A stretch of 40,184 nucleotides of DNA from positions 1-40,184 of the forward strand of contig QZLA01000205.1 in the NCBI GenBank assembly GCA_004796375.1, given 5' to 3'. Of the stretch, positions 4,131 through 39,992 are shown in pieces (the stretch's first letter is position 1; every line of letters begins with the position of its first letter). The DNA comes from Desulfobacteraceae bacterium (GTDB lineage Bacteria > Desulfobacterota > Desulfobacteria > Desulfobacterales > Desulfobacteraceae). The notes under the pieces are model-generated. The model saw only the letters and a program-made list of their open reading frames with translations, ran no database searches and was not told the origin of the DNA. Both the position numbers and the translations under genes were made by a program.

Positions 4131-6011
4131 TCATAATTGATACTGACTCAGCCTTCTCAGCGCCGTTAAAAAACCCTGGCCATTATTCAGATGTCCCCTC
4201 CAGACTTCCGGCACCCAGGTATCCTGGTAACCGGAAAATAGCGGCATGATTTTGTCAAAGTCAATATCCCCTTCATGGATCTGCATCCCTTCTCCATCCA
4301 CACCATAGGCGTCTCCCATGTGGATATGGCGGATATAGGGATACACAATACGGACAAATTCGCCCAGGTCTTTTTCTTTTGCATTGCAGTAGAGTGCGGC
4401 ATGTGAAATATCAAATACAATATTGACATTGGTTTCTTTACAAAAACCTGCAATTTCATCAGGGTCCATAAAAAAATTGCCCTTCCAGGCACCTCCGAAA
4501 TACCAGGGATAGGGGGGGAGATTCTCCAATAACAGGTGACTGCCAACGGTATCAATCTCCTTAAGGGATTGAATCAGTTTTTCTCTTAACCTGTTTTTAT
4601 CTAATTTAGCTTTCAGGCTCATGGCGCCAGGATGGGCGATTAGTTTAGGGATTCCTTTGAAATGGGGTGCCAGTTTTGCCGTGAGGGCGGCAGTCGTGTT
4701 GACAAGGTCCACGGAGGCTTTCCGGATATCCTCGCTGGCACTGCACAGGTCCATGAGTTTGCCGTCCAGGTACTCGGCCACATGCACTACCAGTTCCTGA
4801 GAGTATTGGCGGGTTAAATCAAATTCAAGGTCAAGGTCCTTTTCCGCCAGATGGATTTCAATGGCTTTGGGGTTCAATTCGATGATGTCATGGAAGTCGG
4901 AAAATCTTGAGATAAGCCCCCATTTACTCTGAAATGATTTTTCAATGTCCCAATGACTGTCCTTGGCTGGATCAAGATCTCTTTCAAGGAAAACACCGTT
5001 TGCTTCAATATCCCTGTCCAGGGTCCGGCCGACCAGGTCATCCAGGTTGGACGGTGCAAGCCCTTTACCCGGTCCTTTTATTGAGACCATGTCACGGGTA
5101 ATCCGGGTGCCTTTTGACAGGAACCGGCTGGCGATGAGGCTTTTACCGAACACTTCGCGATTGAGCACTTCTCCCCGGAGCAGGAAACGATCCTCCTTGG
5201 CCATGGCAAGATCTGCAATCCGTATATCCCGAACCATTCGTTTAAATTCAAAGGGCTCAAGGCTGATTTTATGGTCTGGGCCATCCATCTTTTTATCCCA
5301 GGTGATGTGCTTCTCAATGATGGACGCTCCCATGGATGCGGCTACAAGCGGGATAACGATGCCGATGTCATGACCGGAATAACCAACAGGGACATTATAC
5401 TGCTTGAGCCAACCGATCATTTTCAGGTTCACTTCCCTGGGCCAGACCGGGTAGGCGCTTCTGCAGTGAAGAATAGCGAATTCGGCACCACAGTCCTTAA
5501 GCAGATCAATGGTTTTCCTTATCTCACCCCGGTAGGACATCCCGGTTGAAACTATCATGGGCAGGCCTTTGGAACCGACATGAGACAAAAGGTCCACGTT
5601 ATTCAGGTCAGCAGATGCAATTTTGTATGCATGGATATCCAATGTCTGGAGAAAATCGGCACTGGTCCTATCAAACGGCGTGCATATAAAGTCAAGGCCC
5701 TTTTCAATGCAGTAACCATTGAGCTGAGCCATCTCATTTTCTGACAGTTCGACCTGTTTCAGGATCGGGATCATGTATTGGAAATGCTGCTCATATCTTT
5801 CAGGGTGCTCCAATATTTCCCTCGGGTACAGGCTGGGCAGGTGGCGCTTCTGAAACTTTACGGCGTTTGCCCCAGCGCTCTGGGCTTCGTCAATCAACTG
5901 TTTGGCAAGATCTATATCACCGTTGTGATTAATGCCGATTTCCGCAATGATATAGGTCGGGCTTCCTTCCCCAACGGTTTTTCCATTGATATGGATCACA
6001 GAGGTGGGCAT
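4131..6011 (-). CDS. NeuB-family sialic/nonulosonic acid synthase with SAF domain, fused to a C-terminal xylose-isomerase-like TIM-barrel (sugar phosphate isomerase/epimerase) domain
   Basis: The ORF at 4131..6089 has its likely start at internal Met 6011..6009 (MPTSVIHINGKTVGEGSPTYIIAEIGINHNGD, the canonical NeuB N-terminus). A SAF domain follows (GEVLNREVFGKSLIASRFLSKGTRITRDMVSIKGPGKG). A further ~270 aa carry a TIM-barrel-like signature (LLLENLPPYPWYFGG...VNIVFDISHA...IRHIHMGD). Confidence 0.8.
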   Translation of the reverse strand: MPTSVIHINGKTVGEGSPTYIIAEIGINHNGDIDLAKQLIDEAQSAGANAVKFQKRHLPSLYPREILEHPERYEQHFQYMIPILKQVELSENEMAQLNGYCIEKGLDFICTPFDRTSADFLQTLDIHAYKIASADLNNVDLLSHVGSKGLPMIVSTGMSYRGEIRKTIDLLKDCGAEFAILHCRSAYPVWPREVNLKMIGWLKQYNVPVGYSGHDIGIVIPLVAASMGASIIEKHITWDKKMDGPDHKISLEPFEFKRMVRDIRIADLAMAKEDRFLLRGEVLNREVFGKSLIASRFLSKGTRITRDMVSIKGPGKGLAPSNLDDLVGRTLDRDIEANGVFLERDLDPAKDSHWDIEKSFQSKWGLISRFSDFHDIIELNPKAIEIHLAEKDLDLEFDLTRQYSQELVVHVAEYLDGKLMDLCSASEDIRKASVDLVNTTAALTAKLAPHFKGIPKLIAHPGAMSLKAKLDKNRLREKLIQSLKEIDTVGSHLLLENLPPYPWYFGGAWKGNFFMDPDEIAGFCKETNVNIVFDISHAALYCNAKEKDLGEFVRIVYPYIRHIHMGDAYGVDGEGMQIHEGDIDFDKIMPLFSGYQDTWVPEVWRGHLNNGQGFLTALRRLSQYQL

Positions 6012-6979
6012 TGGTTCTCCTCCACGGCCGTTTGCCAATAAATTAGAAGGTCTTTCAAGGTTTTGGTCAGCGGTATCATCGGTTCCCACCCGGTCAGTGT
6101 TCGGAAAAGGGTGTTATCACACACCATGATAGGGATGTCAGAAGGCCTCATGCGATCAGGGTTGGGTTCAATTTCAACCAAGACCCCGGAAATGTCCAAA
6201 AGCATCGAAAGAATGCTTTCAAGGCTGAGGGACTTACCTGATCCGATGTTATACGCCTGGCCGGGAAGGCCATGCTCAAGGGCGAGCCAGTAGGCTTTTA
6301 CCGCATCTCTGAAATCCGTGAAATCCCTGTGGGCCTCAAGGTTGCCCACCATGATGACGGGTTTGTTCCTGCCGGCCTTTATCTGGGCAATCTGCTTGGC
6401 AAAGTTGGATAGCGCGAAAATAGGACTTTGCCGTGGGCCGGTCAGGTTAAACACACGTACACGGATGATATCCATTCCGTAATTATGATGATACTGAAAG
6501 GCCAGCATATCCTGGGCGACTTTACTGACGCCGTAGGGACTTACCGGTTTGAACGGCACGGTTTCAGACACAGGCAGGTCACTTTCAGAAATCAGACCGT
6601 AGCTCTCCGAACTTCCTGTGACAAGGATTCGTGCATTAATGCTATTTTTCCGGACGGCTTCAAAGATATTTAGCTGGCAGGTGATGTTGTTTGAAATGGT
6701 TTGCACCGGATTTTTCCAGCTCTCTGCGACACTGGTTTGCGCGGCAAGATGGTAGATTTGATCCGGCCGCAGGTCCCTGATAAGGGTATTGACCGTTTCT
6801 GTGTTACACAGGTCACACTCATGCAGGTGGATCTGATTTTCAATTTGATGTAGAAACTTATGGCTGTCTCTGGGATGAGCAATGCCGTAAACCTCAATAT
6901 CCGGCATGGTCAATAGATATTCGGCAAGGTAACTGCCGGTCATCCCCGTAACCCCCGTGATTAGTGCCTTCATACCCAT
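5996..6979 (-). CDS. NAD(P)-dependent epimerase/dehydratase (SDR), GDP-mannose 4,6-dehydratase / GDP-4-keto-6-deoxymannose reductase-like
   Basis: 327 aa. N-terminus ALITGVTGMTGSYLAEYLL carries the GxxGxxG motif. The catalytic YxxxK appears in SPYGVSKVAQDML. The GNLEAHRDFTDFRD region resembles GMD/RMD family members. Confidence 0.8.
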   Translation of the reverse strand: MGMKALITGVTGMTGSYLAEYLLTMPDIEVYGIAHPRDSHKFLHQIENQIHLHECDLCNTETVNTLIRDLRPDQIYHLAAQTSVAESWKNPVQTISNNITCQLNIFEAVRKNSINARILVTGSSESYGLISESDLPVSETVPFKPVSPYGVSKVAQDMLAFQYHHNYGMDIIRVRVFNLTGPRQSPIFALSNFAKQIAQIKAGRNKPVIMVGNLEAHRDFTDFRDAVKAYWLALEHGLPGQAYNIGSGKSLSLESILSMLLDISGVLVEIEPNPDRMRPSDIPIMVCDNTLFRTLTGWEPMIPLTKTLKDLLIYWQTAVEENQCPPL

Positions 6980-7753: not shown

Positions 7754-8578
7754 TTACAACCCGACACGGTCATACGAGTGATAAAACGCGATCCGGTGGC
7801 TGATCTCCCCTCCCACCAGAATAATGGCGGCAAGAGATAAAGCGATCAGTTCAACCAGTGCTGCTTTGGCAAGGAGCAGGAAGATGACGCAAAGGATCAC
7901 CCCTGAGCCATGGAAGACCGGCCAATGTGAGCTTTTGGCCGGACGGCGTTTTTTTTTAAATCTCTGATACAACCCTAGGGTCATTTTGATCAGGCTCCCT
8001 GATACTGCAGCAATTATTGCCGCTTGAACGTAGATATCAGCAGTAACAGCGTCATGACCCGTGGAAGATGTCATGGCGCAGATGGTTTGCACGAGGGCAA
8101 ACTGAATGCCTCCCAGCACCAGTGCCGAGCCGACAAAGCTGAGCAGGGTGCCGGAATGGTTCCATGACGGAACGGTTTTCAATTGATACACCCGGGACAT
8201 GGAGTAAAGGAGTATGGCTCCGGCGAGGCTTGCGCCGGATAGAACGAAAACATCAAACTCTTTTGGCCTTATGGGAGTGGTAATGATCAGCAGCGCCAGG
8301 GCACCGGCATGGACATGGACAAAAAAAATCTCTCTGCTGAGCCAGGAGTGCCTGAGGTTGGCAATGGCAAAAAGACCGGCGCGGGGATTACTCAGGTGGG
8401 CAAGTGCAGCGGCCATTCCGGCAAAAGACAGGGCCAGGGCTGCGGTCAGGTGACTGATCACAGGCAGCCCCGTATTGGCGGTATTTATCATGAAATGTGC
8501 CGCCAGCAGGCACCAGATACTTCCGACAGACGCCTGGAAAAGCAGGGTGAAAGCCACCAGGCTCCAATGACTATGCAT
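7754..8578 (-). CDS. DmsC-family membrane anchor subunit of a DMSO-reductase-type molybdoenzyme
   Basis: A polytopic membrane protein of ~275 aa (282 aa if the start is at 8602). It lies immediately downstream of the DmsB/DmsA-like genes with overlapping boundaries. Hydrophobic helices run throughout the sequence. Confidence 0.65.
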   Translation of the reverse strand: MHSHWSLVAFTLLFQASVGSIWCLLAAHFMINTANTGLPVISHLTAALALSFAGMAAALAHLSNPRAGLFAIANLRHSWLSREIFFVHVHAGALALLIITTPIRPKEFDVFVLSGASLAGAILLYSMSRVYQLKTVPSWNHSGTLLSFVGSALVLGGIQFALVQTICAMTSSTGHDAVTADIYVQAAIIAAVSGSLIKMTLGLYQRFKKKRRPAKSSHWPVFHGSGVILCVIFLLLAKAALVELIALSLAAIILVGGEISHRIAFYHSYDRVGL

Positions 8579-9209
8579 CTTTATTCTCCTCAGGATTGGC
8601 AATGGTTCCCGTCACATCGTCTTGCGTACGGCTCATTCTGTGCGGTACCAGGACACTGCAGGGCGTTGTTATCTTGATGTCCGGCAGGGGGGCGATGTCC
8701 GGCTGGCTCCTGGCATCCTTTTCCAGTTCATCCCATGGACCGAAACCCAGTGCCCGGGTGGGACAGGCTGATACACAAGCTGGAGACCTGCCTTCAGACA
8801 GATAATCCTCGCAGAAATTGCATTTGGTCATCCGGCCGGCATCCGCATCAAACTGGGGAGCGCCATAGGGGCAGGCCCACTCGCAATACCTGCACCCCAT
8901 GCATTTGCCCTGATCCACTGTTACAATGCCGTTTTCATCCGGGTGCATGGCAGTGGTGGGGCAGACCTGGGTACAGATGGGATCCATGCAGTGGTTGCAG
9001 CTGACCGACACGTAGTAGGTAAACACATCCTGCATGAACGTACCGTCCGGCAGGGGCATCCACTGGCCGCCGCAATATTCAGCCACCCGCCGCCAACGCA
9101 GGCCCAGGGCCAGGTTGTTTTTATCCTTGCAGGCCACCATGCAGGTTTTACACCCGGTGCACTGTTGTGCATCCAGGGTAAAGGCCCATTTGTTCAGTTC
9201 CCGGGTCAT
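8571..9209 (-). CDS. DmsB-like 4Fe-4S ferredoxin-type electron-transfer subunit
   Basis: 212 aa with four Cys clusters: CTGCKTCMVACKDKN, CNHCMDPICTQVCP, CMGCRYCEWACP and CNFCEDY...CVSACP. It has no signal peptide. Its start overlaps the DmsA-like stop. Confidence 0.85.
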   Translation of the reverse strand: MTRELNKWAFTLDAQQCTGCKTCMVACKDKNNLALGLRWRRVAEYCGGQWMPLPDGTFMQDVFTYYVSVSCNHCMDPICTQVCPTTAMHPDENGIVTVDQGKCMGCRYCEWACPYGAPQFDADAGRMTKCNFCEDYLSEGRSPACVSACPTRALGFGPWDELEKDARSQPDIAPLPDIKITTPCSVLVPHRMSRTQDDVTGTIANPEENKDA

Positions 9210-11497
9210 GGGGATACCTTTCTCACCTCCACCAGGTTGGTGTGCTGGGGATTGCCTTTTGCCAGTGGTGACGGCCGCTGGCGGGTCAAAATATTAATGG
9301 ACCCGTTGGTATCGTTTCCCTGTTTGTCTGGCGTGTACCACGCTCCCTGGGGCAGGGAAAGCACTCCCGGCATGATTCGGGGCGTCACCTTGGCCGGGAC
9401 TTGTGTCTGTCCGCAATCGTTGAACACACACACAAGATCGTTGTGTGAAATGCCCCGGGCCTCGGCATCCAAGGGGTTGATCCACAAGGACTGTACGGCC
9501 GCCTCCTGAAGCCACGGATTGTTGCCGTAAGAGCTGTGGGTCCGCTGCTTATGATGGTGGCCTATCAGTTGAAGGGGATACCTGGCGGATTCAGGCGTAC
9601 CCGGCATCCCCCATGTCTGATGATATTCGGGAAGGGCACTGATCACATCACCATCCGGCAGTTGCCAGGCATGTGCAATATCCCACAAGCGTTTTGAAAA
9701 TATTTCGATCTTTCCGGATGGTGTTTTCAGCGGCGCCGCCTCGGGATTTTCCCGGAAATCCTTGAGCCCGACAATGGGCGGACCCTGTCTCTTCCACTTG
9801 AACAGGCCGGTTTGCATGGCCTGCTCGAAATTTTTCGGCAGGTCATCGCGTACCTGTCTGCACTGGTGGTACATGTATGTCACCCACTCATCCCGGGTGC
9901 GGTCTTCTGTGAATTCTCGTCCCACACCCAGGCGGTTTGCGATATCTGAACAGATTTCAAAAAGGGTCCGGCACTCTCCCAGCGGCTCTATGGCTTTTGG
10001 GCGAAGGATCAGTGCGGCCATCTCCACGCCGTATCCCTGGTAGGCAAGATCGCTCTCTTCAAAAACACTAACTCCGGGCAAGACAATATCCGCGTATGTT
10101 GCACTGCTAGTCATGACATTATCGATCAGTACAATCATTTCACAGGCCGTCTCATCCGACAGGATGTCATGGGTGTGACGGATATCCGAATGCTGGTTCA
10201 CCAAGGTGTTGCTGGCAAAACTCCAGATAAATTTAATGGGTGTTTCAAGGTGCTGCTTTCCCATCAGCCCGTGGGTGATGTCGGTAAACCCTTTGGGATC
10301 CTCGATGGCTTGGGTCCACAAAAAGCAGGGGATGGAGGTGCTGACCGGGTTGGATCCCGTGGGAATAGAGGGAAACGCAAAGCCGAAGGGTGCTTCCCGT
10401 CCGCCGCTGTTGCCGCCCTGGATGCCCACATTGCCGGTGAGGATGGGCAGCATGCAGATGGCGCGGGCGGTCTGTTCACCATTGGCATGCCGCTGAGGCC
10501 CCCACCCCTGGGCAATGTAGGCAGGCTTTGCCGTGCCGATCTCCCGGGCGAGCTGAATGATGCGCTCTGCTGGAATTCCTGTAATGCTCGATGCCCATTG
10601 AGGCGTCTTGGGGATACCGTCCGGCCCCGTACCCAGGATATACTCCTTGTAACTGTTTCCTGCTAAAAATCCTGGCGGCATGGTGGCGACATCATATCCC
10701 ACGCAATAGCGGTCCAGAAACGGTTGGTCCACCAGGTCCTCGGTGATCAGGACGTGGGCAAGGGCACAAACCAGGGCCGCATCCGTTCCCGGGCGAATGG
10801 GAATCCATTCATCTGCCGCAAGGACCGCGGTATCGGAATGCCGCGGATCGATGACAATAAGCCTGACATTGCTCTGTTTTTTGACCCGTGCAAGATCATA
10901 GGTGGAACCACCTCCGCTCATGCGGGTTTCGGCCGTGTTGTTGCCGAAAAAAACGGCAAGCTTGCTGTTGGCCATATCAGAGAGGTTATTGGCGCACTCG
11001 TGGACACCGTATGTATACTGAAGCCCATGGGTGATCTGGGCGGTGCTGTAGGAGTTGTAATGGTTGAGTTGGCCGCCCAGAAGATTCATCAGGCGGTCGA
11101 TCTGCTCGCGGCCGGAAACCACCCCTCCCAGGTTCCCGGTACCGTAAATGCGATGAACCGCCTCGTTACCGTGGGTTTTGATGACCTGGTCCAGTTTGGT
11201 GGCAATCTGTTCGATTGCTTCTTCCCAGGAGATGCGGGCAAATTGACCCTCACCTCTTTTCCCGGTCCGTTTGAGAGGATGAAGCAGCCGCTCGGGTGAA
11301 TAGATCCATTTTCGCAGGGCTCTTCCCCGAAGACAGGCCCGGATCTCGTGGGCACCAGGGGTGTCCTCCCCGGTGTTGTCGGTCTCGATTTTCACGACGG
11401 TCCCATCTTTCACATGCACGCGGAGGGCACAACGGCTGCCGCAGTTTACATTACAGACCGACCAGAGTATTTTATCAGGGCATGTGGTATCTGTCAC
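9206..11497 (-). CDS. Molybdopterin (bis-MGD) oxidoreductase catalytic subunit of the DMSO reductase (DmsA) family, lacking a Tat signal peptide
   Basis: 763 aa. The N-terminus ILWSVCNVNCGSRCALRVHVKDGTVVKIETDN aligns with mature E. coli DmsA (VIWSACTVNCGSRCPLRMHVVDGEIKYVETDN). The GTG start has GGAGG 7 nt upstream and an in-frame TGA immediately before it, so no twin-arginine leader is possible. Confidence 0.85.
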   Translation of the reverse strand: MTDTTCPDKILWSVCNVNCGSRCALRVHVKDGTVVKIETDNTGEDTPGAHEIRACLRGRALRKWIYSPERLLHPLKRTGKRGEGQFARISWEEAIEQIATKLDQVIKTHGNEAVHRIYGTGNLGGVVSGREQIDRLMNLLGGQLNHYNSYSTAQITHGLQYTYGVHECANNLSDMANSKLAVFFGNNTAETRMSGGGSTYDLARVKKQSNVRLIVIDPRHSDTAVLAADEWIPIRPGTDAALVCALAHVLITEDLVDQPFLDRYCVGYDVATMPPGFLAGNSYKEYILGTGPDGIPKTPQWASSITGIPAERIIQLAREIGTAKPAYIAQGWGPQRHANGEQTARAICMLPILTGNVGIQGGNSGGREAPFGFAFPSIPTGSNPVSTSIPCFLWTQAIEDPKGFTDITHGLMGKQHLETPIKFIWSFASNTLVNQHSDIRHTHDILSDETACEMIVLIDNVMTSSATYADIVLPGVSVFEESDLAYQGYGVEMAALILRPKAIEPLGECRTLFEICSDIANRLGVGREFTEDRTRDEWVTYMYHQCRQVRDDLPKNFEQAMQTGLFKWKRQGPPIVGLKDFRENPEAAPLKTPSGKIEIFSKRLWDIAHAWQLPDGDVISALPEYHQTWGMPGTPESARYPLQLIGHHHKQRTHSSYGNNPWLQEAAVQSLWINPLDAEARGISHNDLVCVFNDCGQTQVPAKVTPRIMPGVLSLPQGAWYTPDKQGNDTNGSINILTRQRPSPLAKGNPQHTNLVEVRKVSP

Positions 11498-21268: not shown

Positions 21269-22204
21269 TTAGAAATATTTCAATCTCAGTTCGGTTTTCC
21301 GTTGTTGGTCATTAAAGGCATAGTCCACAACGGTTCCCTGTTTGTAGATTTTGTCCCGGCCGGTAGGCAGAAGTCTGGCCTGATCCCGTACCTTCAGCAT
21401 CGCAAATCCGAAATCATCCCGGTTGATTTTGTACGGATAGGGAAAATCGCTTCGATTGATATCCCCTTTGTACTGGATCACCTGAACAGCTTTGTTTTTA
21501 TAAAAGCCGCCATTAAGCCGTTTTTGTGCCTCTTTGTCGAGGTTCAGCCTGATTTTCGAGCCGCCGTTTGAATAATCCGCAATGTTTCCGGTTACTGCAT
21601 ACTGTTTATTCAGCGTCACAATGACATGATCATGGTTGTCATCCCTTCGTTCATATCGGCGTTCAAAAAACAGCAGCAGCTCTGTGGTCAATCCGCACTT
21701 GTCATGCCAGTAGGACAGTTGTCTTGAACAGCCCTCTTCAACGGTAAACGAGACGGTATCCCCGCACATGCATTGGTATTCCCCCTGCTTGATCCCAAGG
21801 ATGTTGCTGATGGATACCCAGGTTTCAAGAGGATTGGTTTTGTGTGCGCCTGGGATGATTTTGGTGTTAAATTTAATGATCGTGGGCTGACAGGGGGAGC
21901 GGCCTTTTCGCCGGTGCTTGATGGCAAAAAATCCCGTGGGGATTTTGCCTTTTTTTAGTGAGAAAGTCGGCCTGATTTCCTGTCTGCAATCTTCGCAAAC
22001 CGCTCTGAATCTGCATTTCCCATCCTTGAGATTGATCCTGCTCTGGGTGAGGTCTATGCTCTGTATATCCTCATCCAGGAACAGGAATCGCAGGGTTTCC
22101 CTGCGTGTGGCCAGGGATGGGGGCCTTGGGGCATCTGGATCTAATTTCTTTCTTTTTGGTGCCATAAGCGATCCATTACCCGGTGATACCACGTAAATTT
22201 TCAA
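21269..22204 (-). CDS. PilZ-domain c-di-GMP receptor with Cys-rich (zinc-ribbon-like) N-terminal region
   Basis: 311 aa. PilZ motifs RRYERR ... DYSNGG (RxxxR and DxSxxG spaced ~25 aa apart) lie in the C-terminal half. The N-terminal half holds CxxC pairs (CEDCRQ, CMCGD...C). Confidence 0.55.
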   Translation of the reverse strand: MKIYVVSPGNGSLMAPKRKKLDPDAPRPPSLATRRETLRFLFLDEDIQSIDLTQSRINLKDGKCRFRAVCEDCRQEIRPTFSLKKGKIPTGFFAIKHRRKGRSPCQPTIIKFNTKIIPGAHKTNPLETWVSISNILGIKQGEYQCMCGDTVSFTVEEGCSRQLSYWHDKCGLTTELLLFFERRYERRDDNHDHVIVTLNKQYAVTGNIADYSNGGSKIRLNLDKEAQKRLNGGFYKNKAVQVIQYKGDINRSDFPYPYKINRDDFGFAMLKVRDQARLLPTGRDKIYKQGTVVDYAFNDQQRKTELRLKYF

Positions 22205-22505: not shown

Positions 22506-22649
22506 ACCTGTCAAAAAAACACAACATGTAAAGGAGGGGCAATGGCAGAAGAGATCAATGCCGGTTGTACCCGGCCCACAGGCGGACCTGTGGCAGATGA
22601 AGTCGTGGAAGACACATCGGTAGACATCGTAAAAAAGGAGGCAGTGAGT

Positions 22650-23258
22650 ATGATCCAAGTGGGAAAAAAGGCGCCGGATTTCTCCGCGGCCGGTTATAAG
22701 CAGGGCGGTTTCGTGAATGTAACACTTTCAGATTATCTCGGGAAATGGGTGGTTCTGTGCTTTTATCCCGGAGATTTCACCTTTGTCTGAGCAACTGAGA
22801 TTTCAGCAGTTGCTGAAAAATATCCCGAGTTCCAGAAACTTGGCGTTGAGGTGCTGTCCATGAGTATTGACAGCATGTTTGTTCACAAGATGTGGGATGA
22901 CCATGAGCTGTCAAAAATGGTGGATGGCGGGGTGCCGTTTCCCATGCTGTCCGATGCCGGCGGTACCATCGGCACCATGTATGGTGTATATGATGCGGAG
23001 GCAGGCGTTGAGAACCGGGGGCGCTTTCTGATTGACCCGGATGGCGTTGTTCAAGGGTTTGAGGTACTGACCCCGCCCGTGGGAAGGAATGTGGGTGAGA
23101 CCCTGCGGCAGATCCAGGCATATCAGCTGGTCAGGGAATCTGAGGGCAGCCAGGCCACGCCATCGGGCTGGAGGCCCGGTAAACAGACATTGTCACCCGG
23201 CCCTGACCTGGTGGGCAATGTCTGGAAAGAGTGGAAAACATCCATGGCCTTTGATTAA
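22650..23258 (+). CDS. Selenocysteine-containing peroxiredoxin (AhpC/Prx family); in-frame TGA at 22788..22790 decoded as Sec
   Basis: ORFs 22542..22790 and 22851..23258 share a reading frame and are separated only by TGA. The TGA sits exactly at the peroxidatic-Cys position of the Prx motif (PGDFTFV-U-ATEI, versus canonical FTFVCPTEI). A 7-bp stem GCAACUG/CAGUUGC hairpin starts 1 nt after the UGA. The ATG at 22650 has the strong SD AAGGAGG; an alternative start at 22542 also has an SD. Confidence 0.75.
22791..22813 (+). promoter_or_regulatory. Bacterial SECIS-like hairpin immediately 3' of the in-frame UGA
   Basis: gcaactg (22791-22797) pairs perfectly with cagttgc (22807-22813) around a 9-nt loop, agatttcag. 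Its position right after the UGA is as expected for a SelB-binding element. Confidence 0.6.
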
Positions 23259-23803
23259 TCTTGATATTTCCTTGATACGGCTCGGTTGATCCGGTATTTT
23301 TGCCGGATCAACTGTTCAAACCCCTGGGCCAGCTCCGCCATGATCATGTTGTGATTTTCAATGAAAACAGGCCGGGCAAAAGGCGAACTCATCTTAATCC
23401 ACAGCTTTGTGGGCGCCACATCCCATATGAAGTTGATCCGGGTCCTGTTCTGAAGCCTGTAGAAGTTACAGATGCCGCTCCCCTCAAGATCTCCGGTAAC
23501 ATCAAATGCAAGAAATGAATAGGGATCAAAATCCCTGATGGTTGAGTCAAAGGTAAGGGTATAGGGCAGGTTGCCTTTCCAGGCGGTCCGGATGAGATTG
23601 CCCTGTTTCAGGTCAGGTCTGTTGCAAGACCGGTCCCTGTGGATCAGGGGCTCGACCTTTTCAAGGCTGCCGCACCAGGAGGGCCACTTCCTGTAGTCCA
23701 TCAACTCGTTCCATACTTGCTGAACCGGTGCATGGAACTGCCACCAGTTATTGAAATGATAGTGGTTGGTCTTTGAAAACAGATCATCAATACGCTCAAT
23801 CAT
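23255..23803 (-). CDS. SRPBCC-superfamily protein (polyketide cyclase/dehydrase-like lipid-binding fold)
   Basis: 182 aa. It is co-oriented with the downstream MMPL transporter and overlaps it by 4 nt. Its size and hydrophobic-pocket residues fit the family. Confidence 0.5.
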   Translation of the reverse strand: MIERIDDLFSKTNHYHFNNWWQFHAPVQQVWNELMDYRKWPSWCGSLEKVEPLIHRDRSCNRPDLKQGNLIRTAWKGNLPYTLTFDSTIRDFDPYSFLAFDVTGDLEGSGICNFYRLQNRTRINFIWDVAPTKLWIKMSSPFARPVFIENHNMIMAELAQGFEQLIRQKYRINRAVSRKYQD

Positions 23804-30144: not shown

Positions 30145-30654
30145 TCATGTTTTATAGGTATCAATCAGCTTGAGCTGAAGTGTTTTCCGATTGACCTTCA
30201 AAAGTTTGAAGGTTGAATTGCCGACGCGAATGCCCTTTTGGGCATCTGCCTTTGAAATAAAACGGGGATAGGCGGATTCCGGGTCAAGTTCAAGCAGGAA
30301 AACATCGAGATGGATCATCTTTTTTTCCAGTCCCTTGAAAACCAGCCGGGTTTTATTAACCGTGATGCTTTTGTCTTTCCTTAACACAATCCTAGTGCCG
30401 AAAATCTTTGAGTCTTCCTGGAATTCAGGGATGGCTCTTCTCTGGCTGGTGTCCTGTAAAAAACTGTTGTTGCGCCAGTCAACAAAAAAATAAATATAAG
30501 AACCGATTGCGGTAATCAGGCCGGTGATGATCAGCATTGAAAAAATGCCGGCTTTATCGATATTGGGTTTCATGGTCGTTCCAAGTTTCCTTTTTTTTAA
30601 AACAAAGTAGCCTTTATACATTAAAAAAACCAAAAGGGTCAAGGTGTAACCCAA
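30145..30654 (-). CDS. Hypothetical small membrane-anchored protein
   Basis: 169 aa ORF (or 143 aa from the Met at 30573). It has an N-terminal TM helix and a ~110 aa soluble domain. It resembles no family I recognise. Confidence 0.35.
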   Translation of the reverse strand: MGYTLTLLVFLMYKGYFVLKKRKLGTTMKPNIDKAGIFSMLIITGLITAIGSYIYFFVDWRNNSFLQDTSQRRAIPEFQEDSKIFGTRIVLRKDKSITVNKTRLVFKGLEKKMIHLDVFLLELDPESAYPRFISKADAQKGIRVGNSTFKLLKVNRKTLQLKLIDTYKT

Positions 30655-35499: not shown

Positions 35500-37425
35500 C
35501 TAAACCGCGGTCTTTATGGTAAAGCCCTTTGCAATGTGGTTGCGCACAAAATAGATCATTAAAACACCGGGAATGATAGAAAGAACGGTCATCGCCATTA
35601 CCAGGCCAATATCCGTCCTGAAGGTAAAGAGGGTTGAAATTGCCATACTAATGGGTTTGCCGCTCGTTACGGTCAATATGCGTGCAAAGACAATCTCCAC
35701 CCAGGAAAACATAAAGCAGAAAAACGCAGTCACAGCAATACCTGGTCCCATCAGGGGAATGAGTATCCTGGTAAAAAATTGAAAAAAAGAATGACCGTCA
35801 ATAAAGGCGATTTCATCGATTTCCCTTGGGATCGCAGCAAGAAAGCTTTCCAGTACCCAGATCGAAATGGGAAGATTAAATGCACAATGTGCCAATGCGA
35901 TACCGAGCGGCCTGTTGACCAGGTCTATTTGCAAAAATATCAGGAAAACAGGGAGAACCATGACCACCGGCGGCATCATTCGCAGCGCCAGGGTACAAAA
36001 AAACAGATATTTATCTCCTGAAAATGTATAGCGGGAAAATCCATAGGCAGCCAAAAACGCCACAGGCAGGGTAATGAGAATGTTTAATGTGACATAGGCG
36101 ATTGAGTTCAGGATTGAACCGGTCAAAACGGGATTTTGAAACACATGGATGTAATTGGACAGGGTAAATTCTCCAAAGGGAACCATCTCCCCCCTGAGTG
36201 TTGAGTGAAGACTGACAGATACAAGGGGGATCAGGGGCAGGAACAGGAAAACAATATAGGCAGTTGTCGGAAGCCATCTGAAGTGCAGGGGGGATTTTAA
36301 AAGCAGTCCTGTTAATTTGGGTTTACCAACGAGTTGAGGGGCAAGCCTATTGAACAGAAAGACAAAAGGCATACACAGGGCAAGGCTCACAAGGGTAACC
36401 ATACAACTGAGGTAAAATACAGGCAGACCCGAACTTGCGACGTTATCCAGAATCCAGCCGGCCAGCCCGGGGTTGATGTAATGGTAGAAAATGCCGTTCA
36501 AAAACATAAGGAGCATGGTATTCTGCCCCAGCCACAAGATTGTTTTCCGGGCAGGGGTCATTCCGGAGATAAAGAGAACACACGCGCAGCCGGCAATGGC
36601 GGTCAGTGGAAAGAGCAGGAAGTGGCCGTATGAGGCAAACATGATCACCACATGGTTGTAAACGTGGAAATTGAAGGGCCCGTTGTTTAATTGATAGGTA
36701 AAAAAGACCATGAAAAAGGCGGCAACAGCCGCAGGCACTAAAATTTTTGTGGACACTTTTTGAATCAGAAAATGCCGGCGCCTCAGAAAAATGCCCAAAA
36801 GATAAAATGAGTAAAGGGTAATTGCCCCGTGGATAAAAAAATAGTTCCAACCGATAACTCGTTCCTTTAACGGGTTAAATATATCGAATTCCAAATTCAG
36901 CCAGTATCCGGCGACATAAAAACCAACGGCAGCGGCAAGGATCTTTGCATTGGAATTTTTCAAAAAACGAAACACCGTGTAATGAACAAGTTCCAGGCCA
37001 ATAATCAGCAGCAGGAACCAGGAGGGTACGCAAAAGGAAGGCAGGCCAAAAACGGTTAAAACCGTCCCTCTAAAATATCCAACCAGAGACGGCAGCGGCA
37101 GACCATAGAATTTTCCTGAAAAAAACAGGGGCGGAATCATCATGACCAGCGTTAGAAAAATAAACGGCAGCAGCCGGGTTGAAAAACAATGGGTGATGAA
37201 TCGGCCCACACGCCAGTTGGCAAGGTCTTCTTTGGCAACATAGCCTGCAATGACAACAAAAAGGACCATGTGAAACGAGTAGGTGAATTTATACAGGCTT
37301 ATTCCGGCCGGGTTTTTCAGTATCATGAACTCTTCGACAAAATGGCCGAAAAAGACCAGGGCGATGGCATAAAACCGTGCAATATCAATGGTAAGAAATC
37401 TGTTTGTTTTTGACCCGGCATCCAT
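35500..37425 (-). CDS. Fusion protein: N-terminal acyltransferase family 3 domain + C-terminal ABC transporter permease (MalG/UgpE-like TMD with EAA loop)
   Basis: A single 641 aa ORF. Residues 1-~370 carry the AT3 signature (RFLTIDIARFYAIALVFFGH followed by multiple TM helices). The C-terminal ~270 aa form a 6-TM binding-protein-dependent permease with the EAA motif IDEIAFIDGHSFFQFFTRILIPL. Confidence 0.75.
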   Translation of the reverse strand: MDAGSKTNRFLTIDIARFYAIALVFFGHFVEEFMILKNPAGISLYKFTYSFHMVLFVVIAGYVAKEDLANWRVGRFITHCFSTRLLPFIFLTLVMMIPPLFFSGKFYGLPLPSLVGYFRGTVLTVFGLPSFCVPSWFLLLIIGLELVHYTVFRFLKNSNAKILAAAVGFYVAGYWLNLEFDIFNPLKERVIGWNYFFIHGAITLYSFYLLGIFLRRRHFLIQKVSTKILVPAAVAAFFMVFFTYQLNNGPFNFHVYNHVVIMFASYGHFLLFPLTAIAGCACVLFISGMTPARKTILWLGQNTMLLMFLNGIFYHYINPGLAGWILDNVASSGLPVFYLSCMVTLVSLALCMPFVFLFNRLAPQLVGKPKLTGLLLKSPLHFRWLPTTAYIVFLFLPLIPLVSVSLHSTLRGEMVPFGEFTLSNYIHVFQNPVLTGSILNSIAYVTLNILITLPVAFLAAYGFSRYTFSGDKYLFFCTLALRMMPPVVMVLPVFLIFLQIDLVNRPLGIALAHCAFNLPISIWVLESFLAAIPREIDEIAFIDGHSFFQFFTRILIPLMGPGIAVTAFFCFMFSWVEIVFARILTVTSGKPISMAISTLFTFRTDIGLVMAMTVLSIIPGVLMIYFVRNHIAKGFTIKTAV

Positions 37426-38272: not shown

Positions 38273-38483
38273 TCACGCGAAGCCCAATTTATCCTGTCTG
38301 TCTGATCTGACCTTTATCCACATAACATGAAAACGTGATAATTTCTCGTATAAACCGTCTTTTTTGACTTGTACTATCAAGAATTAACATCAATAAAATC
38401 GCTGGTTGCTATTTTTGTTATTTTCTTTTATATCCCGAAAAGTGTTCTTTAACCCAGGCTTTTATGAAAGGAGTCCTTTGAAG

Positions 38484-39992
38484 ATGGAGACGGTAAGTTC
38501 TATATTGGCAGCTGTTTTTGCAGGAACATGGATCACGAACATACTGATTGCTGCAGTGGCGATTGGAGCAGGATTTTTCAACTGGAAAATTGTCAAACAG
38601 ATTCTTGGGTGGCGAATTGTTGTTCCAACCAATGAGGTGCATATTAACCAGAGCGGGGCAGGTACCCAGGCGTATGGTCGCGGACTGGATAATGGCAATG
38701 TATATTACAAGTGGCCCATTTGGATTCCAAAACTCGGTCTGACCACCATTATACTCCCCACCTCAATCTTTGATATCGATTTGGACGGATATGATGCCTA
38801 TGATAAGGGCCGTCTGCCGTTTACAGTGGATGTTAAAGCATTTTTCAAGGTTGAAGATGCTGAAGAAGCCGCGCAGCGCGTTGAGAATTTTGGTGAGCTC
38901 AAAGAGCAGCTCAGGGATATTCTTAGAGGCTCTGTCCGTACGATTCTTGCAACATCTGATATTGAAACCATTCTCAGTGACCGAAGCAAGTTTGGGGATG
39001 AGTTCACCAAAGAGGTGACTGAACAGTTGAAATCCTGGGGTGTTAATCCCGTTAAAAATATAGAATTTATGGACATTCGTGACAGTCATGATTCCCATGT
39101 TATTGCCAATATCATGGCCAAAAAGAAATCAGAGATCGAAAAAGACAGCCGCATAGAGGTCGCCAACAACCAGAAAGAAGCCAAGATGGCGGAAATTGAT
39201 GCGGCCCGGGAAGCACAGCTTAGGGATGAGGATGCAAAAAGAGAGGTTGGTGAGAAACAGGCGGAAAGAGAAAGATTGGTCGGTAAGGCAAATGAGAGCT
39301 CCCAGCAGGAAATCAAGGAAGCCGCTAAACTGACGGCTGAAAAGGAGATGGCCGTTAAAAAAGTCGAAGAAGAAAAACGTGCTGAAATAGACCGCAATGT
39401 CGCAAAGATCAAGGCCGATCAGGAGCGGGAGGTTAAAGTGGTCCAGGCGGAAGCTGCGGCACAGGCAGCCGAAAAGCAGAAACAGGAGCTTGCCCATAAA
39501 GCCGAAGCCGATCTTATCCAGGAGCAAAAGAAAGCCCAGGGTATTAAAGCTGTGGGTGAAGCTGAAGCGGATTCCCTCAGGGCCAAGGAACTTGCGCCCA
39601 TCCAGGCACAAATTGAGCTTGCCAAAGAGATCGGTGAAAATGAGGGATACCAGAAATACCTTCTCGGGTTGGAAGAGGTTCAGGCGTCCATTGAAGTCGG
39701 TAAGGAAAAGGCAAAAGCACTCGTTGCAAGTGATGTCAAAATCATTGTCACTGCCGGTTCCACAGAGAGCGGTTTTGATTCTGTTATGGATGTCTTCAGT
39801 GCAAATGGCGGTACAAAACTCGGCGGGATGATCGAAGGATTTAAAAACACACCAATGGGCCAGGAAATTCTGGGCAAGATGGGCCTTGATATCATTAAAA
39901 CACCCGAGTCTAAAGAGAGGCCTTCTGTTGCAAAAAATGAAATCAAGGACAGTACAGTTGATGCGGGGTACGCCGATACCAAGGCTGAGTAA
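38484..39992 (+). CDS. Flotillin / SPFH (band-7) domain protein (YqiK/FloT-like)
   Basis: Start at METVSS, with an AAAGGAG RBS ~10 nt upstream (the ORF-track start is 38406). An N-terminal TM helix precedes the SPFH domain. A long Glu/Ala/Lys-rich coiled-coil flotillin domain follows (EAAREAQLRDEDAKREVGEKQAERERL...). Confidence 0.85.
   Translation: METVSSILAAVFAGTWITNILIAAVAIGAGFFNWKIVKQILGWRIVVPTNEVHINQSGAGTQAYGRGLDNGNVYYKWPIWIPKLGLTTIILPTSIFDIDLDGYDAYDKGRLPFTVDVKAFFKVEDAEEAAQRVENFGELKEQLRDILRGSVRTILATSDIETILSDRSKFGDEFTKEVTEQLKSWGVNPVKNIEFMDIRDSHDSHVIANIMAKKKSEIEKDSRIEVANNQKEAKMAEIDAAREAQLRDEDAKREVGEKQAERERLVGKANESSQQEIKEAAKLTAEKEMAVKKVEEEKRAEIDRNVAKIKADQEREVKVVQAEAAAQAAEKQKQELAHKAEADLIQEQKKAQGIKAVGEAEADSLRAKELAPIQAQIELAKEIGENEGYQKYLLGLEEVQASIEVGKEKAKALVASDVKIIVTAGSTESGFDSVMDVFSANGGTKLGGMIEGFKNTPMGQEILGKMGLDIIKTPESKERPSVAKNEIKDSTVDAGYADTKAE

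Follow-up and report, generated by a model that had tools for sequence, protein, structure and literature searches.

The stretch of DNA analysed here, referred to as the window, comprises 40,184 nucleotides (nt) from a Desulfobacteraceae bacterium (assembly GCA_004796375.1, contig QZLA01000205.1, positions 1 to 40,184, forward strand). On its plus strand, positions 22542-23258 hold the gene prxU, which, taken as a whole, is best explained as encoding a PrxU-type selenocysteine (Sec) peroxiredoxin with an AhpC/Prx1 fold (estimated probability about 0.93). A mechanical list of open reading frames (ORFs) gives the gene as two pieces, 22542..22790 and 22851..23258. A preliminary description, made from the letters of the window, had held that both pieces share one frame interrupted only by a TGA, and translation of the region confirms this: between the ATG at 22542 and the TAA at 23256-23258, the TGA at 22788-22790 is the sole break. 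The expectation that gene callers would truncate or split the gene is also borne out, as the locus is present in three ENA metagenome contigs (L104-L106) and is called there as AhpC-TSA fragments of 82 and 132 amino acids (aa). The features of the gene are the following:

22532-22537, plus strand: Shine-Dalgarno sequence (AGGAGG) for the long-form start at ATG 22542, read from the sequence
22542-23258, plus strand: prxU, long form; 238 codons including Sec83, in a single frame with one internal TGA and ending in TAA
22563-22598, plus strand: N-terminal motif, family consensus GCARPTGGPVGE (GC(A/T)RPTGGPVGE), with the Cys9 codon at 22566-22568
22636-22641, plus strand: internal Shine-Dalgarno-like AGGAGG, 8 nt upstream of ATG 22650
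22650-22652, plus strand: internal ATG (Met37), candidate second start, for a 202-aa short form with Sec47
22758-22760, plus strand: codon for Cys73 (in LCFYPGDF), ten residues before Sec; nearly invariant in alignment A1 and invariant in A3
22788-22790, plus strand: UGA, read as the selenocysteine codon (Sec83 in the long form, Sec47 in the short form)
22791-22813, plus strand: hairpin of the preliminary description, GCAACUG (22791-22797)/CAGUUGC (22807-22813), a perfect stem of 7 base pairs (bp); not conserved
22801-22818, plus strand: predicted selenocysteine insertion sequence (SECIS) hairpin, 7-bp stem 22801-22807/22812-22818 (UUUCAGC/GCUGAAA), apical loop AGUU at 22808-22811
23157-23159, plus strand: codon for Thr206, nearly invariant, at the canonical resolving Cys (VCP) site as aligned to 4fh8 and 7kj1

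The identity of the protein is given by profile comparisons in which Cys is put in place of the TGA-encoded residue. The NCBIfam model NF040737 ("peroxi_PrxU") is an equivalog for selenocysteine peroxiredoxin with a curated cut-off of 270 bits. Read from Met1, the long form scores 414.7 bits against this model, with residues 7-235 lying on positions 2-233 of the 233 in the profile; read from Met37, the short form scores 397.3 bits (profile positions 35-233), which is also above the cut-off. The next-best family, AhpC (TIGR03137), reaches 188 bits, under its own cut-off of 272, and the Pfam AhpC-TSA domain is matched at 4.5e-38. Among solved structures, the best relatives are typical 2-Cys peroxiredoxins/AhpC, with E values of 1e-40 to 2.9e-46 over residues 36-227. 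The active-site motif PxxxTxxU is present as P76-G-D-F-T80-F-V-U83. Replacement of the peroxidatic Cys by the UGA-encoded residue, as originally proposed, is confirmed by the structure-sequence alignment, in which residue 83 (PGDFTFV-U-ATE) pairs with the peroxidatic cysteine of FTFVCPTE in the solved 2-Cys enzymes.

A scan with one genome per species finds 597 relatives, of which the best 80 loci (L001-L080) are analysed; counts out of 81 refer to these loci plus the window sequence. The 80 loci are 70-80% identical to the window protein, most are matched over residues 1-238, and both halves are without frameshifts. Their sources include Desulfobacterales, Syntrophales, Desulfobulbales, Spirochaetota, metagenome-assembled genomes labelled Caldithrix, and others. 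The codon is TGA in 81/81. The preliminary description had proposed orthologs as a check, with Cys at this codon and the lack of a conserved hairpin pointing to a nonsense mutation; all 80 best loci have TGA, and the hairpin at 22801-22818 is conserved. Among the public protein hits (P0001-P0120), most full-length homologues have W at the residue-83 column, one has G, and a minority have Cys. The W and G entries are a database artefact, generated by metagenome callers that read TGA under genetic code 4 or 25, and this artefact hides selenoproteins.

The hairpin that follows the UGA is examined in an alignment (A2) of the window and the 80 loci that spans 72 nt about the TGA and in which the predicted SECIS occupies columns 23-29/34-40. 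Within these columns 99.8% of the cells are paired, compared with 43-68% in slid controls. Compensatory change is seen at 4 of the 7 pairs (59 such cells), a value that none of 500 shuffles reaches; for example, pair 27/36 is GC in 39 sequences, AU in 34, UA in 6, CG in 1, and GU in 1, and pair 24/39 is UA in 64 and CG in 15. On the aligned loci, RNAalifold predicts the hairpin 22801-22818 as the only structure. The apical loop follows the pattern RGUY (GGUC in 43, AGUU in 37, GGUU in 1). GCR and GUY, the two codons that form the loop, occur without exception (81/81 each), whereas elsewhere in the same genes about 40% of Ala codons end in a purine and about 54% of Val codons end in a pyrimidine; judged from these codon counts, the choice of loop codons is selection on the RNA rather than on the protein. 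As outlined in PMC13188914, the bacterial SECIS (bSECIS) model of Zhang and Gladyshev (2005) has a loop of 3-9 nt, a stem of 4-16 bp, a G in the first two loop positions that is usually followed by G or U, a UGA-to-loop spacing of 16-37 nt, and a minimum free energy of -7.5 kcal/mol or lower. The 4-nt loop and 7-bp stem of the window hairpin are within these limits, a G lies within the first two loop positions and is followed by U, and the spacing is 17 nt (22791-22807). On these comparative grounds, the SECIS is the hairpin at 22801-22818, ten bases downstream of the hairpin first put forward. The preliminary description was right that a 7-bp stem begins directly after the UGA and that a SECIS lies close by; the stem it singled out is not the SECIS.

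Relatives that encode Cys at this position serve as controls. Among four close Cys-form homologues with DNA examined, the hairpin is lost in three (hairpin-region energies of -3.8, -5.6, and -2.2 kcal/mol in L109, L111, and L112, respectively) and kept in one. In the latter, L108 (1501-2112), the codon is TGC. This homologue retains a perfect SECIS-type hairpin (-11.4 kcal/mol, GGUC loop) as well as the N-terminal extension, which is left out by its gene call; its sequence suggests that Sec was recently converted to Cys, TGA to TGC. A set of 23 more distant metagenome Cys forms (L081-L103) has no G-U in the loop and is 79% paired, although it is an imperfect control, since its members are more distant and the residues encoded by the hairpin region differ. 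A stable stem is kept by some of these forms because the codons for Ser-Ala-x-Ala-Glu are inherently self-complementary.

Both candidate starts of the gene are conserved, in different ways. The preliminary description had placed a Shine-Dalgarno sequence before each ATG, and an AGGAGG is indeed found at 22532-22537 and at 22636-22641. Upstream of the equivalent of ATG 22542, the AGGAGG is matched at 6/6 positions in 52 of the 81 loci and at 5/6 in 25, and in 76/81 this start precedes the GC motif by 7 codons. Ahead of Met37 the reading frame is open in every one of the 81, and the 36-codon extension is conserved as protein in 80/80 loci. Within the GCARPTGGPVGE motif the amino acids are kept while synonymous sites are free: all six Arg codons are used, and Cys is TGT in 41 and TGC in 40. 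Cys9 is invariant among 103 aligned homologues. The motif sits on a variable acidic linker, and every long-form PrxU homologue keeps it at the protein level. In addition, the extension is part of the PrxU profile (positions 2-34), and the long form scores 17 bits above the short form. Since the extension is conserved as amino acids and belongs to the profile, the long form from ATG 22542, on this comparative evidence, is translated and under selection. The internal site shows constraint of another kind. Its AGGAGG is complete (6/6) in 64 of the 81 loci, GGAG is present in 78, and the spacer is most often 8 nt; the Met37 codon is ATG in 79/81, with one GTG and one ATT. At codon -5 the box has AAG in 49 and AAA in 4, and at codon -4 it has GAG in 65 and GAA in 2, a preference opposite to that found elsewhere in the same genes (AAA 466/AAG 381; GAA 465/GAG 349). 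By this codon usage the internal AGGAGG and ATG are under selection at the nucleotide level, and a second initiation at ATG 22650, yielding a 202-aa form without the arm, is probable. The earlier preference for ATG 22650 thus holds in part: a short start is plausible in addition, but the form from 22542 is the one conserved as protein.

Other explanations can be given for the TGA. If it were a nonsense mutation or sequencing error in a pseudogene of a Cys-peroxiredoxin, the two fragments reported by gene callers would be expected, and homologues containing Cys do exist. This explanation is effectively refuted by the occurrence of TGA at the same codon in the 80 best loci of many lineages, by the same split in three independently assembled ENA contigs, by the identity and intact frame of both halves, and by the covarying hairpin that comes after the TGA. 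A reassignment of UGA (genetic code 4 or 25), with Trp or Gly rather than selenocysteine as the residue, has next to no probability. The many public family entries with W at this column, and the one with G, would fit such a reassignment, but they are accounted for by the alternative codes used in metagenome calling; moreover, an enzyme with Trp or Gly as its peroxidatic residue would be dead, and the orthologs belong to lineages with the standard code, Desulfobacterota among them. Within the window, TGA is the ordinary stop for 11 of the 32 long ORFs, most with Pfam or NCBIfam matches, and thus codon reassignment is not the explanation.

Two further alternatives concern the hairpin and the start. 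The hairpin at 22791-22813, starting right after the UGA, has a perfect 7-bp stem, a G at loop position 2, and, in the window sequence, a slightly lower energy than the SECIS hairpin (-7.7 kcal/mol and about 52% of the ensemble, versus -7.2 kcal/mol and about 47%). Because the two hairpins overlap, are mutually exclusive, and are nearly isoenergetic, folding of the single sequence does not decide between them; the RNAfold-type check that had been suggested gives, for the window sequence alone, a fold marginally better than shuffles (z = -1.95, 11/200). The comparison of loci does discriminate. In A2 (columns 13-19/29-35), the upstream hairpin is paired in 85.5% of cells versus 83.4% in shuffles. 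Two of its pairs vary, both at third codon positions, and these are broken in 38/80 and 40/80 orthologs; the other five, nearly invariant, are dictated by the codons for Ala-Thr-Glu and Ala-Val-Ala. In addition, its loop begins 7 nt past the UGA, outside the 16-37 nt of the bSECIS model, it is absent from the RNAalifold prediction, and the hairpin at 22801-22818 is the more stable of the two in 58 of the 81 sequences. It is most unlikely that the upstream hairpin is the functional SECIS. Translation of the short form only, with the upstream 36 codons as a non-coding leader, is very unlikely as well. This proposal has on its side the strong and conserved Shine-Dalgarno sequence and ATG at 22636-22652, the canonical peroxiredoxin N-terminal residues of the short form, the existence of a truly short Cys form (L109), and the founding PrxU of Eubacterium acidaminophilum, which is about 203 aa long with Sec47. 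Against it are the frame that stays open in every locus, the N-terminal motif kept as amino acids despite free synonymous change, the ATG at a fixed distance of 7 codons before the GC motif with a Shine-Dalgarno sequence of its own, and a curated profile that includes the extension and rewards the long form.

Several observations weigh against the interpretation of prxU as a selenoprotein gene with two starts. In the window sequence the isolated SECIS hairpin has an energy of -7.2 to -7.3 kcal/mol, just short of the -7.5 kcal/mol of the bSECIS model, and the non-conserved hairpin that competes with it is slightly stronger; the published threshold may be meant for a longer segment, and across the family the energy averages -8.4 kcal/mol (range -6.3 to -12.7). 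No SECIS family is matched in Rfam, either in the whole window at the gathering threshold or in 22740-22880 at E values up to 10, where the only matches are noise (snoRNA and miRNA models). The genes selA, selB, and selD and tRNA-Sec are not found in the 40-kb window, so that the decoding machinery of the host is inferred. In particular, ARAGORN detects no tRNA or tRNA-Sec in the whole window, and sel-related domains are absent from the 30 window ORFs compared with Pfam and from the five compared with NCBIfam, including 38406-39992 (NCBIfam only). The AlphaFold2 monomer, modelled on the long Cys-form homologue P0039 with the 103-sequence alignment, has a confident peroxiredoxin core (predicted local distance difference test score, pLDDT, above 90) and a disordered N-terminal arm (pLDDT 37-63); it gives no structural support for a role of Cys9, nor does it speak against one in docking. 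Finally, selenium incorporation and the two isoforms are predictions from sequence.

The proposed course of events begins with translation from ATG 22542 and probably, through the internal Shine-Dalgarno sequence and ATG, also with synthesis of the 202-aa form without the arm. The UGA at 22788-22790 would be read as selenocysteine, as the comparison of loci supports. For this, the mRNA would fold into the 7-bp hairpin at 22801-22818, with its RGUY loop 17 nt past the UGA. In the fdhF SECIS of E. coli the apical loop is GGUC, and its G and U contact the Sec-specific elongation factor SelB. By analogy, the G-U of the prxU loop would be presented to SelB, which would then deliver Sec-tRNA(Sec) to the ribosome. 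In the finished enzyme, as in the family generally, the selenolate at the PxxxTxxU site would reduce peroxides, becoming a selenenic acid, and the name of the NCBIfam family suggests that the enzyme is recycled by thioredoxin. How recycling proceeds bears on the 1-Sec mechanism of the preliminary description. Its statement that no resolving Cys follows the Sec stands: there is no Cys after residue 83, Thr206 occupies the resolving site, and the protein lacks the resolving Cys of a typical 2-Cys peroxiredoxin. The 1-Sec mechanism itself is not established, because the invariant Cys9 and the nearly invariant Cys73 lie upstream of Sec83. Since Thr replaces the canonical C-terminal resolving Cys, recycling may occur either by direct attack of a reductant or through a conserved upstream Cys; of the upstream cysteines, Cys9, on its flexible N-terminal arm, would be the more likely one. 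A tentative and rather doubtful extension of this idea is that the two nested isoforms differ in mechanism, with Cys9 of the long form acting as the resolving residue via a selenenylsulfide with Sec83 and the short form acting as a 1-Sec enzyme. A Cys9-Sec83 selenenylsulfide, if formed, would replace the lost C-terminal resolving Cys.

In relation to known systems, the window protein resembles PrxU (NF040737) in passing the curated cut-off, in having Sec at the peroxidatic PxxxTxxU position, and in lacking a C-terminal resolving Cys. Counted from Met37 it has 202 aa and Sec47, close to the E. acidaminophilum PrxU. Unlike that protein, which corresponds to the short form, the window protein and its 80 orthologs have a 36-residue extension with an invariant Cys. 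With typical 2-Cys peroxiredoxins (AhpC/Prx1; PDB 4fh8, 1qmv, 1yep), it shares the active-site motif, the conserved Arg, and the confidently modelled core, but it has Sec for Cys, Thr206 for the VCP Cys, ATE rather than PTE after the peroxidatic residue, and the extra N-terminal arm. Like the fdhF-type SECIS of E. coli, the prxU hairpin is a stem-loop within the coding sequence downstream of the UGA with a small G-U loop, and 43 of the 81 family members even have the loop GGUC; unlike the fdhF-type SECIS and the bSECIS model, the hairpin in the window is without an evident bulged U or extended lower stem, and its loop is AGUU.

Sec-peroxiredoxin was founded experimentally by Söhling et al. (2001, Biol Chem 382:979), as cited in PMC8533274 and PMC9312934, and it is listed, with its TxxU motif, among the experimentally verified bacterial selenoproteins in PMC9312934 and PMC13188914. 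Twelve Sec-peroxiredoxins were counted in 2006, notably in Syntrophus, Syntrophobacter, Geobacter, and Anaeromyxobacter (Zhang et al. 2006, PMC1794560). In Desulfococcus multivorans, a Sec-peroxiredoxin is annotated (dmul_C20060/70) together with selA/B/D (PMC5109826). These Sec-peroxiredoxin genes of Desulfobacteraceae and Syntrophales (PMC5109826, PMC1794560) resemble the window gene in belonging to the same broad lineage, in being annotated as two locus tags, and in residing in genomes with selA/B/D; for the genes of D. multivorans, Syntrophus, and Syntrophobacter, orthology is inferred from family assignment only.

In the window, prxU is a stand-alone gene. It is convergent with an uncharacterised 182-aa ORF (23255..23803, minus strand), which overlaps it by 4 nt at the prxU stop. 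When five neighbouring window proteins are compared by tblastn with the flanks of L001-L080, no match is found; hence there is no conserved prxU neighbourhood and no adjacent reductase gene that would inform the mechanism. A scan for promoters and terminators around prxU gives nothing above shuffle expectation. Just past the prxU stop, at 23279-23330, lies a strong hairpin with a 13-bp core (GGUUGAUCCGGUA/UGCCGGAUCAACU; -26.3 kcal/mol, z = -3.9). It is without a U-tract, falls within the 3' end of the 182-aa convergent ORF, and may be a bidirectional terminator. A scan of the window for further ORF pairs joined by one TGA yields only candidates that, by their coordinates, overlap better-supported genes in other frames.

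Elsewhere in the window, all on the minus strand, positions 7754-11497 hold a three-gene molybdopterin oxidoreductase operon of the polysulfide/thiosulfate/DMSO-reductase type, in which the catalytic subunit (763 aa, without any in-frame TGA) carries an Fe4S4 domain and is accompanied by a 4Fe-4S dicluster subunit and a membrane anchor resembling DmsC. Two apparent fusions are also present. The first, at 4131-6089 (652 aa), joins a NeuB sialic-acid-synthase-like domain, a SAF domain, and a xylose-isomerase-like TIM barrel. Its GTG start may have been placed too far upstream, since the ORF shares 94 nt with the gene that follows (5996..6979). The second, at 35500-37425 (641 aa), joins an Acyl_transf_3 domain and an ABC permease BPD_transp_1 domain. 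Neither Pfam nor NCBIfam gives a match for the ORFs at 21269-22204 (311 aa), 23255-23803 (182 aa), and 30145-30654 (169 aa). In public metagenome assemblies of the locus, the 182-aa ORF is called identically, the 311-aa ORF is called with a shorter start (298 aa), and the region of the 169-aa ORF has a 142-aa call.

The original proposal of a selenocysteine peroxiredoxin is thus supported by the PrxU cut-off, by the TGA in 80/80 loci, and by the covarying hairpin downstream. Knowledge of Sec-peroxiredoxins dates back to 2001, and the curated NCBI model for them covers the N-terminal extension; the family is not new, and the gene is an ordinary member of this catalogued bacterial family, with nothing new for selenoprotein biology. 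In literature covered by a narrow search, no function is described for the extension or for the internal start, and the only leads that are mildly new are the invariant Cys of the N-terminal arm and the conserved internal start site. As by-products, the analysis provides a corrected SECIS for the PrxU family, supported by covariation and with an RGUY loop 17 nt after the UGA, and a caution that many public PrxU entries have W or G at the Sec position as a result of other genetic codes. For annotation, a single Sec-containing gene should take the place of the pieces 22542-22790 and 22851-23258, and the organism can be flagged, from this sequence evidence, as a probable selenocysteine user.

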